From an uncultured Anaerolineae bacterium (GTDB lineage: Bacteria; Chloroflexota; Anaerolineae; Aggregatilineales; J027), in assembly GCA_964557285.1 (NCBI GenBank), contig CAZKZS010000002.1, positions 1 to 56,688 of the forward strand: DNA of 56,688 nt, read 5' to 3'. Positions 20,560 through 42,530 of this stretch are shown here, in pieces (the stretch's first letter is position 1; the number at the start of each line of letters is the position of its first letter). The notes under the pieces were generated by a model. That model worked only from the letters and a program-made list of their open reading frames with translations, made no database searches and was not told where the DNA came from. Made by a program: the position numbers and the translations under genes.

Positions 20560-22764
20560 TCAGTCCATCACCAGCCCAACGGCACAGCGGCAGTCCATGA
20601 CCTCGCTCAGCGGTGCCCCCTGGCTCAGGTCGAGCGGGTACATCATGGTGTAGCCGCCCACGATGAAGGGTTCATCCAGGGGGATCGGGCCAGGGCTGCC
20701 GCCCGCCACGTAGCGCCGCCCGGCGTCTTCATGGGTGTCGCGCACCCGGTCGTCAAAGGTCGCCAGCCACTCTTTGCGGTTGGCACCCCACTGCTTGCCC
20801 AGATTGAATGTCCCCACATTGAGCATCCGCATGGATTCGACGCGGGCGATCAGTTCGCGCCGGTAGGCCGGCAGCCGGTCTTCAAACCACCGGAAGTCTT
20901 CCGCCGTCAGCCCGCCGTCCATGTACTGTTTGAACAGGAGGTCGAGCCGGTCGGTCATCTGGTCGATACTCCAGCCTTCTTTGCGGGCGAGCAGCAGCAT
21001 GGCCTGAATATCGTCACTGGTGGTCTGGGTGATCGGCTGGGCGAAGGTCAGGGTGTAGTCGGCGAACCAGGCTTCGCCATCCAGGCTCCGCAGGTTGAAG
21101 GCGAGGCCGAGCTTGGCCGCCCATTCCTGTCCACCTTCAAGGGCGATCCCTTCCAGCAGTGGGATGAACGTCTCGCGCCACTGGTCGCCCGCCTGCTGTT
21201 TGAGGTAGGTCAGCGCGTCGATTTCGACCTCGTTCCAGTTGAGGGTCGCTTTGCGCTGGAGTGCTTTTTGCCGGGCGGCAGGAAGCAGCGCCAGGAGTTC
21301 GCGCCGGTCCGCTTCAAACGCCTCGCGGGCCGCGTTTTCAAAATCGGTCTGCCAGCGGTCGGCGATGCCGGTCATTTTGACCCACATCGGCGGGTGGAGG
21401 ATTTTGGGCGGCTCGCTGCCGTTGTTCGGCGGTTCGGCGTCGGTGGGTTTCGACCCGTCCTCTGCCGGCTGAGGCTTGTTGGGGGACGGCAGGACGAGGC
21501 GCGACTGGTCATCGCCGGGGTAGCGCGGCACCCGCAGCCCGACCACCTGGTAGGCGAGATACGGCGGCGTCCCCATCGTCCACAGGTTCCTGGCAGCGGT
21601 GGTCTGCTCAACGACCGATTTTCGCAGCGCCGGCACGTCGGACAGATCATGCATGGCAAACGCGCCGTCGGCGGTCGTCAGGTAGCGCAGAAAGGCTGAA
21701 TCAAACAGACCCAGTTCCGGGATGAGCGAGTCTTCCCAGAAAGCCCGCCGGGCCGTTTCGTAGTTGGAGTAGGTGCTGTGTTTGAGGCCGATGAGTGCCC
21801 CCACCAGGATCGGCGGCACGCCCAGCGCCATCAGAATCCGGGCTTCGTTGCGGGCGTCGATGCCCTCGAAGCCCATTTCGTTGAAGGTCGGCGAGATGCG
21901 CTGGTAGTCGGCGTCTTCATCCAGCACGCCGATGGAGTCGAACCAGTTTTCCGCCCCCCCATAGAGTTCGCGCCAGCGAGCACGGGCCGCGTCCTTCTGG
22001 TCATCGTCGAGCGCCACCTTGTACTTGAGGAGTCCGGCCAGCATCATGCCGTGCTGGAAGAAGCGCTTGAGGGTGTCGGTCACCTCGTTATCAATGTCCC
22101 CAGCGCGGCCAGCGGGCAGCAGCGGCGACATGCCTTTGCCCAGCCCGGCCAGCGGGTCGGACAGGTTGGGCAGCTTCACATGAATCATGTCGTCGGGAAC
22201 AATCGGCCAGCCGTCCCGGTTGTTTTTGCCAGGCGGGGTGTAGTAATACCCCTTCACGGTGTTGTCCGACCCCGGCACGACCTTGATACGGTCCGGGCGC
22301 AGCACATACATCGCGCTGGGCAGCACGTCCGAGCGGGTGCGCTGCAACCAGATGAAGGCGTTGCCGGTGATGCCGAGGAAACAGACGGCCAGCGCCTGGA
22401 AGTTCCAGCGCAGCATCTGGGGCGCCGGGCGCTCCAACAGCTGGCTGAGCGGATGATCCGGCGGGGCGGGTTCGGGGTTATCGCGGTCGCCCAGGTAGGC
22501 GCGGAGCGGGGCTGCCGCGACTGCGTTGGCCTTGTACAGGACGGCGCGGTAAATGAGGGTGTTGCGCTCATAGCCTTCGCTGATGTAGGCGTCCTCGTTG
22601 CCCAGCAGCCAGAGGGGCTGCTGGTGGTACCAGTCTCCCCACAGGCGCAGGCCGGCCTTGACGGATCGGTGCGGCAGGGCGGCACCGAAAACCAGAGCGG
22701 CCGCCAGACTGAAACGCTGCCCCAGGGACAGACGCGGCGAGTAGGGTGCAGAGGATTGGCTCAT
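20560..22764 (-). CDS. Portal protein fused to an SPP1 gp7 / Mu F-like minor head domain
   Basis: 734 aa. The N-terminal ~450 aa are portal-like and follow TerL. The C-terminus WLATFDDRVRDTHEDAGRRY...PLDEPF...YPLDLSQGAPLSEVMDCRCAV matches the MuF/gp7 signature. Confidence 0.8.
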   Translation of the reverse strand: MSQSSAPYSPRLSLGQRFSLAAALVFGAALPHRSVKAGLRLWGDWYHQQPLWLLGNEDAYISEGYERNTLIYRAVLYKANAVAAAPLRAYLGDRDNPEPAPPDHPLSQLLERPAPQMLRWNFQALAVCFLGITGNAFIWLQRTRSDVLPSAMYVLRPDRIKVVPGSDNTVKGYYYTPPGKNNRDGWPIVPDDMIHVKLPNLSDPLAGLGKGMSPLLPAGRAGDIDNEVTDTLKRFFQHGMMLAGLLKYKVALDDDQKDAARARWRELYGGAENWFDSIGVLDEDADYQRISPTFNEMGFEGIDARNEARILMALGVPPILVGALIGLKHSTYSNYETARRAFWEDSLIPELGLFDSAFLRYLTTADGAFAMHDLSDVPALRKSVVEQTTAARNLWTMGTPPYLAYQVVGLRVPRYPGDDQSRLVLPSPNKPQPAEDGSKPTDAEPPNNGSEPPKILHPPMWVKMTGIADRWQTDFENAAREAFEADRRELLALLPAARQKALQRKATLNWNEVEIDALTYLKQQAGDQWRETFIPLLEGIALEGGQEWAAKLGLAFNLRSLDGEAWFADYTLTFAQPITQTTSDDIQAMLLLARKEGWSIDQMTDRLDLLFKQYMDGGLTAEDFRWFEDRLPAYRRELIARVESMRMLNVGTFNLGKQWGANRKEWLATFDDRVRDTHEDAGRRYVAGGSPGPIPLDEPFIVGGYTMMYPLDLSQGAPLSEVMDCRCAVGLVMD

Positions 22765-22775
22765 ACTAGGCTCCC

Positions 22776-24101
22776 TTAGAGTGGGCTGGACCGCTTGCGC
22801 TCCATGATCGGGACGATATAGCGCAGCGCGTCGAGGTGGTGATACGCGGCTTTGTTTTTGATTTTGTCCGTCGTGTTCCCGTCGGCGTCGAGTTCACGAC
22901 TGTAGGTGGCGATTTCGTCCAGTATACCATGACAGTCATCGAAGACATACAAGCGGAACTGACGGAGCAGCTGGGTCACCCGGTCGATGCCCGCCTCAAC
23001 ATCGGTGATGAGGGGTTCCCTGATGCGGGTCATGCCGGCGGCGAGCCAGTCGGCCCGCTGCTGGATTTCGGACTGGTTGCCGATGGCCCAGCCCTGGACC
23101 CGCTCGCTACCCTGCGCGGCGAGCTTGCGGTGATGGGCCACCAGTTCGGGTGTGGATTTGCGGCCGTCGAGTTCGGTGCGGTAGACGTAGTAGATCGGCG
23201 CCGCTTTGGTCGGGTCTTCCGCGATCCAGACCGAGGCCGTGTGCACGCCGCCAGGATCGATTCCGACCCAGCGCGGCCAGTGGGGCGGGATGTTGAAAGG
23301 CCGGATTTTATGACCGCCGTTTTCCTCATACTCGTCGATGAAGTCCTCGTAGATGAGGCCGGCGGGCCGCTCAAACAGGCCCATGTACATCATGCGGAAC
23401 AGCCAGGCGACGGTGTCGGCACGGCGTTCGTTGAACTCCGCAAACGAAAAGGCCGGGTTCACGACGCTGGCAAACTGGATAACATCAATGTCGGCCGCAC
23501 CTTTGCGCCAAGGGTCGTAAATGTGCTGTTTGAGCCAGCCGAGGTTGTAGGGCGTGGTCGTGCCCAGCACCCGCCCGCGAAAGAGGGAGAGCCGGCGCTT
23601 GACGGCCTGCCAGGCGCCCAGCCCAAATTCGTCCTGACCGCATTCGTCGAGCCAGGCGGCGCGGGCCGTCGCGGACTCCAGCCCGCCAGGGGAAGAAGCC
23701 GAGCGCAGGATAATGCGCCCCCACATCGGGTCGCGGCTGCGTTTGGCAAGATAGCGCCCCGTCTGTGGGTCGCGCAGTTCAATCACCTGGTCGCCCGCCC
23801 AGTAGCGCCCGATGTGGAGCAGCTCCTCGAAGACGGTCAGCATCTCCGGGAGCATCTTCAACTTGAACAGGTCATAAGTGGCGGTGACGGCCAGGTAGTC
23901 GCCGCCGTTCATGCGCTGGATTTCGCGGTGCAGCCACCAGGGGCCGAAGCTGGTCTTGCCGGACTGTGTGCCGGCGATGACAAACACAAAGCGCCTGGTG
24001 CTGTCCCAGGCGCGGGTCTGACCCGGATGCAGGTGCAGACGCAGCACCTTGCCGTCGCGCTCGTAGATCGTGCTAAGCGGGTTCGTCGGCAGGGCCACCA
24101 T
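22776..24101 (-). CDS. terL: Terminase large subunit
   Basis: Walker A AGTQSGKTS, Walker B AAWLDECGQDEF and an RNase-H-like nuclease motif VGIDPGGVHTAS. 441 aa. Confidence 0.9.
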   Translation of the reverse strand: MVALPTNPLSTIYERDGKVLRLHLHPGQTRAWDSTRRFVFVIAGTQSGKTSFGPWWLHREIQRMNGGDYLAVTATYDLFKLKMLPEMLTVFEELLHIGRYWAGDQVIELRDPQTGRYLAKRSRDPMWGRIILRSASSPGGLESATARAAWLDECGQDEFGLGAWQAVKRRLSLFRGRVLGTTTPYNLGWLKQHIYDPWRKGAADIDVIQFASVVNPAFSFAEFNERRADTVAWLFRMMYMGLFERPAGLIYEDFIDEYEENGGHKIRPFNIPPHWPRWVGIDPGGVHTASVWIAEDPTKAAPIYYVYRTELDGRKSTPELVAHHRKLAAQGSERVQGWAIGNQSEIQQRADWLAAGMTRIREPLITDVEAGIDRVTQLLRQFRLYVFDDCHGILDEIATYSRELDADGNTTDKIKNKAAYHHLDALRYIVPIMERKRSSPL

Positions 24102-24513
24102 AATCTTTAATCACTTCGATGGTTTTGATGTGGGTCACGGTGGCGCTGTCCACATGCACCTCCGGCACGTTGGACAGGCCCATGACGCGAATCTGGCGGT
24201 CCATGATCTTCAGCGCGGCGTCAATGGCCTCCAGGTCACCCGCCGCCGCTTTGTCCCAGACCCCGACCAGCAGCTTGTCGAGCCGGGCCAGCACGAGCAT
24301 GATCCGGTCGTTCGCTTTCTGGGCGTACTGCTGGCGCCATTCCTTCAGGATGGCCTTGTAGTCGCTGGCGATGGTGCCCACCGACACGCCCAGCTTGTCG
24401 GCGATGACGCGGTAAGACACCCCGCCGCGCACCTGGGCCGCGACGAACACCCGGCGCTCCTCAATCGAGAGGCGGTCGGCAGCTTGCGCCTGACGGCGGT
24501 CGTTGAGGGTCAT
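24073..24513 (-). CDS. terS: Terminase small subunit (HTH type)
   Basis: 146 aa. HTH GVSYRVIADKLGVSVGTIASDY. It overlaps the terL start by 29 nt. Confidence 0.65.
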   Translation of the reverse strand: MTLNDRRQAQAADRLSIEERRVFVAAQVRGGVSYRVIADKLGVSVGTIASDYKAILKEWRQQYAQKANDRIMLVLARLDKLLVGVWDKAAAGDLEAIDAALKIMDRQIRVMGLSNVPEVHVDSATVTHIKTIEVIKDYGGPADEPA

Positions 24514-26809: not shown

Positions 26810-26834
26810 ACGGGGAGTCCTTTGGAAAGAAAAA

Positions 26835-26876
26835 GGCCCGGTCGCAGAGGTACTGAGGGGAAGGTGCGGACCGGGC
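26835..26876 (-). terminator. Hairpin terminator/attenuator after the tRNA-like gene
   Basis: Minus strand: GCCCGGTC ... GACCGGGC (8-bp stem) followed by CTTTTTCTTTCC. An A-run on the other side makes it potentially bidirectional. Confidence 0.5.
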
Positions 26877-26895
26877 AAAAAGTGAAAAATGGTTA

Positions 26896-26966
26896 AGCGG
26901 ACCCCCGGACTCGAACCGGGCAATCCGGCGCGGTACGCCGGCACAGCACCTGGCTGTCCAATCCGC
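26896..26966 (-). tRNA. tRNA-like gene, Gly-type identity with anticodon ACC (atypical)
   Basis: Hand-folded cloverleaf: acceptor GCGGATT/GGTCCGC, D arm ACAG-CCAGGTG-CTGT, anticodon arm CCGGC-GTACCGC-GCCGG, variable loop ATTG, T arm CCCGG-TTCGAGT-CCGGG, discriminator T. Atypical features are G8, G32 and A34. No encoded CCA. Confidence 0.5.
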
Positions 26967-26977
26967 GTGCTGCCTTC

Positions 26978-27007
26978 ATGGTAAATCAGAACAGGTGTTC
27001 AAGTCAA
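26978..27007 (-). promoter_or_regulatory. Promoter of the tRNA-like gene / packaging operon
   Basis: Minus strand: TTGACT (27007-27002), 18-nt spacer, TACCAT (26983-26978). The tRNA 5' end lies 12 nt downstream. Confidence 0.5.
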
Positions 27008-27073: not shown

Positions 27074-27102
27074 TTGACACAAACTACACAATAGTGTAGG
27101 AT
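27074..27102 (+). promoter_or_regulatory. Promoter P2 with operator CTACAC-AATA-GTGTAG
   Basis: -35 TTGACA (27074-79), 17-nt spacer, -10 TAGGAT (27097-102). Palindrome at 27084-27099. Followed by a TTAACAATC box and a leader hairpin at 27132-27153. Confidence 0.75.
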
Positions 27103-27180: not shown

Positions 27181-27369
27181 ATGGTAGACAAAGACCTCCT
27201 CAAACTGTACGAAACGCTGAAGTCACAGGCTGACGACGACAGCACGGTCGGCTGTGAAATCTACAGCCTGTTTATCGACCTGCTCACCATCGCCGTCGCG
27301 GACGGCCAACTGGCTCCAGAGCAGCTGGCGATGGTCGAAAACACCGGAATCGACGAGATGATGAGTTAG
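27181..27369 (+). CDS. Small acidic protein
   Basis: 62 aa, rich in D/E. SD AGAAAGAAGG. It is the first gene after P2. Confidence 0.6.
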   Translation: MVDKDLLKLYETLKSQADDDSTVGCEIYSLFIDLLTIAVADGQLAPEQLAMVENTGIDEMMS

Positions 27370-41411: not shown

Positions 41412-42530
41412 ATGAGCAGTTTACAGCAGGAACACAATGCCATTCTCAGCGAGATCGAGGGGCAGGTGGTGGGTTTGAATGTGGGCAACGGCTTCGTCAA
41501 GGGGACGAACGGCGCCGCCCGGCTGCCCGTGATTCCGTCGGTGGTGTCGGTCATGAATGAGATGGTCGAGTATGAGGAAAACTACTCGCCGGACGACATC
41601 CTGATCGAGTACCAGGGGGTGCGGTATGCGGTGGGATACACCACCCACCGGCTTGGCTCGGCGGCGGTGCCGGATATGTCCGGCGAGCGGATGATGTCCA
41701 GCGACTACCTGATTTTGTTTCTGGCGGCGCTCTCCCTCCTGGACCCCGGCGACAAACGCCGGAACGGGGATTTTGTGCCGGCGCGGGTGGTGCTGGTGGC
41801 ACCCCTCTCCAGCTACAACCGCAACCGGAAGCAGATCAAAAAGTACCTGGCCGGTTCCCACCAGGTCGGCGTCATCCAGAGCGGGCGCCTCCGGCGGACC
41901 GTGACGATCCACATCAGCGAGGACATGCTGAAAATTATCCCGGAAGGCCGGGGCACGCTGGCCTCGCTGACCCTGACCGACGAGGGGCTGCCGGTGGACC
42001 CGGACGGCTACAGCACCCGCACGGTCGGGATCGTGCAGGTTGGCACCCGCACCACCGAGGGCCTGTTTTACGAGCGCTCCCTGCCGAACGACTCGCGGTC
42101 GTGGGGGCTGTCCAAAGTCGGGCTGTCAACGGCCTGGAAGCACCTTCAGGACTATGCCCGCAACCGCCACAACTTCGAGTTGGATATGTACCAGGCCGAT
42201 GAAGCCCTGAAGGCGGGCGGGTTTTACATCGGCAAAAAATGGATCGACCTGGGTGAGGAGGAGCGGAAGGACTCCTTTATCGCCAATGTGGCCCGGCAGG
42301 TTGGCAATGAACTGGCGACCCGCTGGCAGAACGGCGAGGATACCTACCATTTGCTGCTGTCGGGCGGTGGGACGGAGGATGTCTATCCCTACCTGCGCCA
42401 GCGCTTCCCACATCTCACGCGGGTCAAAGACCCGGTGTATGCCGAGGCGGTTGGCGCCTGGAAATACGGCCTCTTCTCTGTGCTGAACGAGATGGGGATT
42501 ATCAAAAGGTACGTTGATGAACAGCAATAA
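41412..42530 (+). CDS. parM: ParM/StbA-like actin-fold segregation ATPase
   Basis: GLNVGNGFVKGTNG (phosphate-1) and HLLLSGGGTEDVYPYL (adenosine/GGG motif). 372 aa. Confidence 0.7.
   Translation: MSSLQQEHNAILSEIEGQVVGLNVGNGFVKGTNGAARLPVIPSVVSVMNEMVEYEENYSPDDILIEYQGVRYAVGYTTHRLGSAAVPDMSGERMMSSDYLILFLAALSLLDPGDKRRNGDFVPARVVLVAPLSSYNRNRKQIKKYLAGSHQVGVIQSGRLRRTVTIHISEDMLKIIPEGRGTLASLTLTDEGLPVDPDGYSTRTVGIVQVGTRTTEGLFYERSLPNDSRSWGLSKVGLSTAWKHLQDYARNRHNFELDMYQADEALKAGGFYIGKKWIDLGEEERKDSFIANVARQVGNELATRWQNGEDTYHLLLSGGGTEDVYPYLRQRFPHLTRVKDPVYAEAVGAWKYGLFSVLNEMGIIKRYVDEQQ

Follow-up and report, generated by a model that had tools for sequence, protein, structure and literature searches.

Why would a phage place a single tRNA-Gly-like gene, with the anticodon triplet ACC, directly in front of an operon for probable DNA modification and for packaging, and what would the RNA do there? 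The gene in question lies on the minus strand of the first 56,688 nt of contig CAZKZS010000002.1 from an uncultured Anaerolineae bacterium (this whole stretch is called the window here), and its tRNA-Gly(acc) is the sole call that ARAGORN makes in the window. An earlier note had described a discrete RNA gene and proposed a codon-supplementing tRNA, a decoy for anticodon nucleases or a processing signal. This interpretation is partly supported, and the feature is more interesting than was proposed there; the note overlooked the adjacent gene for a Dam-like/GNAT-like fusion enzyme, P0001, which is the source of the most likely function. We are highly confident that the RNA is a genuine, selected partner of this enzyme, tRNA-like and of the type charged by glycyl-tRNA synthetase (GlyRS). 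On balance we also think it probable, from the make-up of the RNA and by analogy with the Mom enzyme of phage Mu, that it serves as a dedicated non-decoding carrier or donor of glycine for the hypermodification of DNA adenines by P0001.

A tRNA-shaped RNA off the canonical consensus

In order, the segments of the 71-nt RNA read GCGGAUU (acceptor), GG (positions 8-9), ACAG CCAGGUG CUGU (D arm), G, CCGGC GUACCGC GCCGG (anticodon arm), AUUG, CCCGG UUCGAGU CCGGG (T arm, GGUUCGAGUCC), GGUCCGC (acceptor) and U. The cloverleaf, previously folded by hand and now called by ARAGORN, is complete: 21 of 21 pairs are formed, in stems of 7 (acceptor), 4 (D), 5 (anticodon) and 5 bp (T), and the two G-U pairs are both in the acceptor stem. 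The D loop has GG (G18G19), and UUCGAGU forms the T loop. The full bacterial GlyRS identity set is present, that is, the acceptor elements G1-C72, C2-G71, G3-C70 and U73, which had been recognized before, together with C35 and C36. No CCA is encoded, and the 3' trailer reads UAACCAUUUUU.

Other positions are unusual. The anticodon loop is G32-U33-ACC-G37-C38 and position 8 is G (normally U), both as the earlier note had read them; U33 and a purine at position 37 are kept, and G32-C38 and U33-G37 are able to pair, closing the loop. C14 replaces A14 and G21 replaces A21. The Rfam tRNA model RF00005 (gathering threshold 29 bits) had no match in the full window at the gathering score, and the tRNA family gave nothing at E<=10 on 500 nt or on 96 nt around the RNA; the best match within the tRNA clan was tRNA-Sec in the 96-nt scan (14.5 bits, E 1.1). 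The earlier note had held that sub-threshold scores from tRNA finders would speak against it; ARAGORN does call the gene but the Rfam tRNA model is negative, and so, as far as Infernal is concerned, half of that objection applies. Compared with a canonical elongator tRNA-Gly, the RNA has the cloverleaf and lacks the Rfam score, the open anticodon loop, the core tertiary positions and a bacterial Gly anticodon (ACC versus GCC, UCC and CCC). It is tRNA-shaped but clearly off the canonical consensus, and it looks unable to read codons.

Linkage to one enzyme gene across phages

Loci of the enzyme family (80 from IMG/VR and 80 from named genomes; 163 fetched loci, which with the window region make 164 sequences, numbered with L) were compared, and linkage was counted over those 159 for which 120 nt or more of upstream sequence was available. 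A covariance model, R1, was built from 38 syntenic RNAs. The copies from the window and from the Gordonia phages Clawz and Soos were among the seeds, so that their R1 scores (57 bits with E 9.5e-10, 60 bits and 58 bits, respectively) are partly high by construction. The R1 search placed a tRNA-Gly-like gene ahead of the enzyme gene, on the same strand, in 103 of these 159 loci; the gap to the enzyme gene has a median of 78 nt, is at most 300 nt in 102 of the 103 cases, and is 86 nt in the window. ARAGORN found 102 tRNAs in the 164 sequences, all of them Gly (tcc, ccc, acc, gcc) or odd-looped NCC and none for another amino acid. Two tandem copies stand upstream in five loci (L015, L033, L071, L083 and L119). 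When the whole records of 36 "empty" viral loci were searched, seven had an R1 match elsewhere, two of these at 1.6-2.3 kb upstream. The loci span Mycobacterium and Gordonia phages, Streptomyces, Micromonospora, Oscillospiraceae, Anaerolineae and Dormibacterota.

Among cultured phages, tblastn detected the fusion enzyme at 36-42% identity in the Mycobacterium phages Cepens, Taptic, Jeon, PR and D12 and in the Gordonia phages Clawz, Soos, Sting and Jollymon. In Cepens, an annotated tRNA-Gly(tcc), gene 71, is followed by the enzyme homologue, gene 72, and by a "ParB-like nuclease domain protein". The corresponding spacer of Clawz and Soos contains an unannotated RNA whose acceptor stem is GCGCGAC...GUCGCGC-U and whose triplet is UCC or CCC. 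Its T loop is degenerate, and ARAGORN misses these copies because this loop is the 8-nt UAACCAAU.

Some details of these loci stand on their own. The GenBank records of Clawz (L002:3823-3893), Soos (L003:3821-3891) and Arthrobacter phage Wyborn (L172:2544-2614) do not contain these tRNA-Gly-like genes. Tandem copies often differ in the wobble base, for example CCC with ACC in L071 and L119. A canonical tRNA-Gly on the opposite strand lies directly upstream of the enzyme gene in four loci (L007:151-222, L011:1364-1434, L066:1231-1301 and L085:1381-1451); these four have U8, A14, GG and a UUC T loop, and 3 of the 4 have the anticodon loop UU-UCC-AA. They could mark a host integration site or be a different solution to the same need.

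Selection on the charging determinants

Family statistics were taken from 96 unique same-strand RNAs, with 25 tRNAs of the metagenomic bin that contains the window as controls. G1C2G3 is kept in 99% and U73 in 100% of the RNAs, and C35C36 in 95%, including every one of the 91 copies whose anticodon loop has 7 nt. Position 34, next to them, varies freely (U 52%, C 23%, A 18%, G 2%). The G-C pair at 32:38 occurs in 88% of the family versus 0 of the 25 controls; U33 is absent in 34%, and position 37 is a pyrimidine in 21%. U8 is present in 76% (controls: U8 in 24 of 25, A14 in 23 of 25), GG is found in 51% of the D loops, and UGC takes the place of UUC in 18% of the T loops. The Rfam tRNA threshold is reached by 8 of 20 representative members. 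The kept positions coincide exactly with the GlyRS determinants given in PMC7826273, and judged by sequence the family pattern is one in which the needs of GlyRS are kept and the needs of the ribosome are relaxed.

The secondary structure is also conserved. In the 38-sequence alignment, 98.6% of the cloverleaf cells are paired and 17 of the 21 pairs have changed on both sides; the covariation score is 0.77 versus 0.18 for shuffles, a value that not one of 500 shuffles attains, and pairing drops to about 40% when the register is slid. The window RNA is a discrete conserved tRNA-shaped gene.

Comparisons with a host were made within the assembly of the window, which comprises 5.2 Mb in 533 contigs and has 36 further tRNAs, including tRNA-Gly with GCC, CCC and UCC. 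The G+C content of the window contig, 62.5%, is at the top of the bin, where contigs longer than 10 kb have a median of 52.4%; G+C at third codon positions is 0.77 versus 0.57, and the window contig shares no sequence with other contigs of the bin. The contig may be mis-binned or be a mobile element from a different host. The G+C gap means that the bin is possibly not the true host, which weakens "host" comparisons.

If the RNA were a pseudo-tRNA in decay or the remnant of an integration site, now without function, this would account for the Rfam failure, for several non-canonical core positions and for the closest protein relatives having no tRNA at this place. We nevertheless rate this as the least probable of the alternatives considered, and close to negligible, since all 21 stem pairs and the complete identity set are intact, compensatory changes run through the family, and the RNA lies inside the element between two operons and not at its end. 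It is moreover unlike the tRNA-Gly genes of the bin, the only resemblance being in the T loop and the universal GCG...CGCU ends; the copy of the 3' part of a host tRNA that the earlier note had named as evidence against itself was not seen among them. An attachment (att) site or integration remnant was accordingly rejected on the difference from the bin tRNA-Gly genes (the bin may not be the true host) and on the mid-contig position between operons. The previous claim of a discrete gene stands on the same two points and on the recurrence of the gene at this position in more than 100 loci.

Could the RNA be an ordinary decoding tRNA-Gly that supplements GGU (or GGU, GGC and GGA if A34 is deaminated) for the late genes, its adjacency to the enzyme being incidental? 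tRNAs are common in phages, ARAGORN calls this one, its U33, G18G19, T loop and stems are all intact, and some family members have normal tRNA scores. However, the Rfam tRNA model scores the window RNA under 14.5 bits, and the RNA has the G32-C38 pair, G37, G8 and C14. Across the family, position 34 is unconstrained whereas positions 35-36 are fixed, and 102 of 102 linked tRNAs are NCC (Gly), which codon supply does not predict. To our knowledge, bacterial A34 tRNAs are essentially confined to Arg, which also counts against this explanation. GGU makes up 11% of the Gly codons on the window contig and 7.5% in the minus-strand late genes, compared with 15% in the rest of the bin; it is rarer here than in the bin, so there is no call for a GGU reader. 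We therefore rejected the codon-supply role on GGN usage, the drift of the wobble base and the non-canonical loop also being against it, and consider decoding by the window RNA quite unlikely. Canonical-looking family members may also decode.

The adjacent enzyme: a GNAT-like domain fused to a degenerate Dam-like domain

P0001 matches two Pfam families in the expected domain order: residues 2-275 match PF22555, "phage DNA adenine methylase-like domain 1" (E 3e-67, 227 bits), and residues 284-446 match PF22559, "phage GNAT-like domain" (E 6e-54, 182 bits), with a cut-off of 27 bits. Its N-terminus, MF.G..P, agrees with the homologues. At least 453 protein clusters have the same two-domain architecture, with sources in Streptomyces, Micromonospora, Kitasatospora, Oscillospiraceae, Chloroflexi and many metagenomes, and UniRef names such fusions "putative antirestriction adenine methyltransferase". 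NCBIfam has no family for P0001, and at E<=10 Pfam gave PF22555 and PF22559 only, with no match to Mom (PF25680). Sequence searches of the PDB with P0001 and with the family profile returned chance matches only, such as the "PPF" motif of CaMK. An IMG/VR scan with P0001 as a single protein found nothing, whereas the alignment-based scan did find homologues. A literature search on PF22555/PF22559 proteins returned no biochemistry, only work on Mom.

An AlphaFold2 model of P0001, made with 61 homologues, has a mean confidence score (pLDDT) of 90.7. When it was compared with the PDB by Foldseek, the C-terminal half showed the GNAT acyltransferase fold (Ard1, Naa50 and others; E 1e-4 to 1e-5). The beta4-alpha3 loop of this half is APTDYPRLSKL and has no conserved glycine in the family, whereas GNATs that use coenzyme A (CoA) have Q/RxxGxG/A there, suggesting that the GNAT-like domain does not use CoA. 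The top match over the N-terminal domain was 7m6b, "Mcbe1", a name that is not identifiable from the output and that we take to be a DNA amino-methyltransferase.

In the Dam-like half, beta1 is followed by a conserved loop rich in glycine (VGCSGNF; VGCSGHF at residues 30-36), to be compared with FxGxG in the motif I that binds S-adenosylmethionine, and beta2 ends in an invariant Asp, D55. Its motif IV is [F/Y]-P-P-F throughout the family (SFPPF at residues 175-179 of P0001), so that the catalytic D/N/S of motif IV (DPPY) is replaced by F or Y in every member and the Dam-type pattern (D/N/S)PP(Y/F/W) is absent. The model and the motifs suggest a base-flipping, adenine-holding module that has lost methylation. 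That its former S-adenosylmethionine (SAM) pocket holds A76 of the tRNA is speculation.

Mom and the same trio of genes

Mu Mom is a GNAT-fold enzyme (Pfam PF25680, PDB 8BV8) that transfers glycine from Gly-tRNAGly to N6 of adenine in double-stranded DNA, with N6-carbamoylmethyl-deoxyadenosine (dA) as the product (PMC13219725, Silva et al., Nat Commun 2026). Mom accepts every tRNA-Gly isoacceptor of E. coli, which suggests that the acceptor end is recognized, and phage-encoded tRNAs are not mentioned in that paper (PMC13219725).

With Mu Mom from the phage record as the query, tblastn gave 295 phage records, six divergent ones of which were examined. Two of these six true Mom homologues, in Microbacterium phage MenE and Arthrobacter phage Wyborn, have a ParB-like gene and an adjacent tRNA-Gly, and the other four loci have neither. 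The order in MenE is ParB-like gene, Mom-like "acetyltransferase" and, 32 nt on and on the opposite strand, an annotated tRNA-Gly(ccc); in Wyborn it is ParB-like gene, Mom-like gene and an unannotated tRNA-Gly(tcc). The Wyborn RNA has A8, a D loop without GG and a C32-G38 closed loop, and scores 62.7 bits. About 20 nt of it fall within the 3' end annotated for gene 71, and hence the end given for this coding sequence is possibly wrong. Because the Mom family, whose dependence on Gly-tRNA is proven, has the same trio in some lineages, the case for the linked tRNA as the donor is stronger. The ParB-like partners of the Dam/GNAT-type and Mom-type loci share the GNH(R/T) motif region only (E 0.003 to 0.1), and we do not claim that the two partner sets are orthologous.

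A further alternative is that the RNA is a decoy or spare against a host defence on tRNA-Gly, such as the acceptor-stem-directed toxSAS FaRel2. The conserved acceptor and discriminator and the drifting anticodon loop would fit such a role. FaRel2 is reported to select tRNAGly via the acceptor stem (PMC11559606), and phage tRNAs that counter tRNA-targeting immunity have been described (PMC12409363). A decoy would leave unexplained, however, why C35C36 is conserved, why the gene is so tightly tied to one enzyme family, or to Mom homologues, and why no other tRNA types occur at the loci, and we consider it highly improbable.

Flanking signals and gene order

The features around the RNA are listed in Table 1. 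The tRNA-like gene lies mid-contig between divergent operons. The upstream promoter that had been claimed was recovered by the scan and ends 11 nt before the gene; it is a consensus match only and hence a candidate. The 1-kb region has 3 promoter-like sites, compared with 0.3 expected from shuffles. The other sites are at 27074-27102 (+) and 27128-27101 (-), within the 200-nt divergent spacer above the tRNA; one spacer site is the near-consensus TTGACA-17-TAGGAT and points into the plus-strand gene block that starts at 27181. This spacer looks like a bidirectional control region.

Table 1. Features of the tRNA-like gene and of the operon downstream of it, in window coordinates
Feature	Position	Strand	Basis
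tRNA-Gly-like RNA, anticodon triplet ACC, 71 nt	26896..26966	-	ARAGORN; family covariance model R1
sigma-70-like promoter candidate TTGACT-18-TACCAT	26978..27007	-	consensus scan, 9/12 consensus matches
hairpin, 8+3-bp stem, 18-nt loop, then U-rich tract	about 26836..26876	-	fold of spacer
Dam-like + GNAT-like fusion enzyme P0001, 452 aa	25451..26809	-	Pfam PF22555 + PF22559; PHROG 7858
ParB/Srx-like partner, 314 aa	24510..25454	-	PHROG 7405; ParB-like PHROG 723
helix-turn-helix (HTH) protein, sigma-70 region 4-like, probable small terminase	24073..24513	-	Sigma70_r4_2 + other HTH families
large terminase subunit	22776..24101	-	PHROG 2, E 1e-27
portal protein fused to Mu-F-like head-morphogenesis domain	20560..22764	-	Phage_portal, E 1.6e-50

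The 92-nt spacer between the tRNA-like gene and the enzyme gene folds at -18.9 kcal/mol (z-score -2.3). The hairpin claimed in it does fold, and CUUUUUCUUUCC follows its stem, but the terminator scan made no call on it because of its 18-nt loop. The RNAs of Clawz and Soos also have hairpins 3' of them. The hairpin and U-rich tract could be a leaky terminator or a 3'-processing or stabilizing element. The ATG of P0001 follows with AAGGA about 8 nt ahead of it, and the ATG of the ParB-like partner overlaps the P0001 stop (ATGA), indicating translational coupling. The start of the partner was fixed by alignment with the partners in Cepens, Clawz and L164-L167, and its SGNHR and LSHN motifs are conserved. 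The HTH protein is probably the small terminase, judged by its position before terL. The tRNA-like gene does stand at the head of this block, as the earlier note had said, but the first two genes of the block encode enzymes and not packaging proteins.

This arrangement bears on another possibility, that the RNA acts in cis as a tRNA-like leader of the modification and packaging operon: an RNase P/RNase Z site that sets the 5' end of the mRNA, a stabilizer, or a charging-gated read-through device working with the hairpin and U-tract. The RNA is on the same strand 86 nt upstream, a hairpin and U-rich tract come before the open reading frame (ORF), Clawz and Soos have the same arrangement, and the median gap of the family fits co-transcription. 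A processing signal, however, needs only the shape of the acceptor and T arm, not invariant C35C36, U73 and G1C2G3; the linked tRNA-Gly of MenE is on the opposite strand, and at some loci the RNA is 0.6-2.3 kb away or downstream. Of the previously proposed decoy and processing signal, neither explains why the GlyRS identity set is kept or why the RNA is tied to one enzyme gene. A leader as the whole explanation thus appears unlikely, and the role would be compatible with that of a donor, the two not being exclusive.

Besides its tail, protease, portal and terminase genes, the contig encodes, at 41412-42530 (+), an actin-like segregation protein (Pfam ALP_N and MreB-like_C), which hints at a plasmid-like (phage-plasmid) lifestyle. 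A 58-bp direct repeat with 93% identity (1076-1133 and 2415-2472) lies inside left-end genes that are likely tail-fibre genes, with a weak C1q-like match. No integrase was matched among the window ORFs sampled, and direct terminal repeats were sought at the contig ends and not found.

A possible pathway and the points that weigh against it

The structure, conservation, covariation and identity elements of the RNA, its linkage to the enzyme gene and the folds of the enzyme are observations, and the glycyl carrier that we favour would connect them as follows. Transcription of the RNA would take place at the start of the operon for modification and packaging; RNase P and a 3' nuclease would trim the transcript, and a host enzyme would add CCA, as none is encoded. 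Host GlyRS would be expected to charge it, all known bacterial determinants being kept. The charged RNA would probably stay out of translation, with G32-C38 and U33-G37 closing the loop, U8 and A14 absent and an abnormal A34. By analogy with Mu Mom, the GNAT-like C-terminal domain may take the glycyl ester from the 3' end of the tRNA, while the degenerate Dam-like N-terminal domain ([F/Y]PPF, GxxG loop, D55) may bind DNA and flip the adenine. Glycine would then end on N6, possibly with a rearrangement, as in Mu, to N6-carbamoylmethyl-dA. The gene order suggests that the ParB-like partner assists on DNA and that modification takes place just before packaging, which would shield virion DNA from restriction.

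A number of points weigh against this pathway. The thermodynamic minimum free energy structure of the window RNA is a rod of -37.0 kcal/mol and not the cloverleaf, which has -29.9 kcal/mol, or -33.4 kcal/mol when the anticodon stem is lengthened by G32-C38 and U33-G37, leaving a triloop. Some family members are fully canonical, with 60-67 bits in Rfam. Most rows of the covariation alignment were picked by ARAGORN, which selects for cloverleaves, and as many of the loci are prophages related to one another, the events counted are not independent. In Foldseek, Mu Mom (8bv8_B) ranked only 18th (E 2.7e-4, TM score 0.48), no better than generic acetyl-CoA GNATs, and hhalign of Mu Mom against the family alignment gave a probability of 2.3%, that is, no relation at the sequence level. 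The DNA target, the glycine donor and the carrier role of the tRNA are all assigned to the PF22555 + PF22559 family by analogy.

The absence of the RNA at part of the loci also has to be considered here. In 49 of the 159 loci there is no tRNA-like gene in the fetched flank, and beside the closest enzyme relatives (47% identity; L164-L167 and L004) neither the upstream spacer nor the stretch out to 3 kb contains a tRNA-like RNA, as searched with the unfiltered covariance model and, in the upstream spacers, with a hand pattern. The enzyme therefore evidently needs no private tRNA; the private tRNA is an optional accessory, presumably replaced by host tRNA-Gly where it is absent. As a separate observation on these relatives, L164, L166 and L167 have divergent ParB_N/HTH_ParB, DUF3560 and faint DUF488 genes beside the enzyme, and L167 additionally an N6_Mtase/Eco57I-like gene; no DUF488 was found among the window ORFs scanned.

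With these points taken into account, the gene set of an odd tRNA-Gly, a Dam-like/GNAT-like enzyme and a ParB-like partner, widespread in phages, most likely decorates adenines of phage DNA against host restriction, by the analogy drawn above. The boldest version is one on which we are evenly divided: a virus tRNA wholly out of translation acts as a glycyl carrier, a crippled methylase fold flips the adenine and might hold A76 in the pocket for the adenosine of SAM, and the GNAT transfers the glycine.

If the glycyl carrier proposal is correct, tRNA-dependent DNA modification, which has been shown only for Mu Mom (2026, with host tRNAs), would extend to a second, far larger and sequence-unrelated family, whose clusters number at least 453 and come from phages, prophages and plasmids of Actinobacteria, Firmicutes, Chloroflexi and others. 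Hypermodification of DNA by way of a tRNA would then have evolved a second time, independently and with a co-evolving RNA cofactor, and the RNA would be the first virus-borne tRNA that works in DNA chemistry and not in decoding. It would explain many "odd" or unannotated phage tRNA-Gly genes and the disagreement among tRNA finders, and would offer a natural system for partitioning a tRNA away from EF-Tu and the ribosome. The DNA adduct would be of a new class that could block restriction enzymes and confound sequencing. Cultured phages with the module, such as Mycobacterium phage Cepens and Gordonia phage Clawz, allow direct tests.

Comparison with known systems

Ordinary phage decoding tRNAs are likewise phage-borne genes with a cloverleaf called by ARAGORN. 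The RNA described here differs from them in being single, always of the Gly type and fixed beside one enzyme gene, and its family has a G-C-closed loop and an unconstrained wobble base. In a similar way, the N-terminal 275 residues of P0001 resemble the Dam-family N6-adenine methyltransferases by Pfam match and keep the PP[F] of motif IV, the Gly-rich loop and the acidic residue, but the D/N/S of motif IV has become F/Y in the P0001 family and a GNAT domain is fused to it.

For an RNA that would be charged but not used by the ribosome, the closest parallel is with the non-proteogenic (NP) tRNAGly of staphylococci. These retain the determinants for GlyRS but show poor binding to EF-Tu, and their T loops contain UGC; NP1-3 of S. 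aureus and S. epidermidis feed FmhB, FemA and FemB (PMC7826273). They are extra isoacceptors of the GlyRS type, as is the window RNA, they are poor in translation, and the glycine activated on them is set aside for a non-ribosomal transferase with the GNAT-related Fem fold; the UGC T loop recurs in 18% of the phage family. Unlike the RNA studied here, they are chromosomal, occur in staphylococci only and have a peptidoglycan precursor as the acceptor, whereas the window RNA has a normal UUC T loop and deviates instead at 8, 14 and 32:38. The window RNA is thus not a member of this group, though it would work like its members in the role that we propose.

For the enzyme, the nearest known system is Mu Mom, which is also a GNAT-fold phage enzyme and some homologues of which also have a ParB-like neighbour and an adjacent tRNA-Gly. 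Late expression, anti-restriction modification of adenine in double-stranded DNA and tRNA-Gly as the glycine donor are features of Mu Mom itself, proposed here by analogy. There is no detectable sequence homology between Mom and the PF22555 + PF22559 family; Mom has an HTH-like insertion, while the GNAT here is fused to a degenerate Dam-like domain, and Mu uses host tRNAs, whereas the phage in the window encodes its own non-canonical tRNA. The feature is best described as a variant of Mom-type tRNA-dependent DNA modification combined with a non-proteogenic tRNA-Gly.

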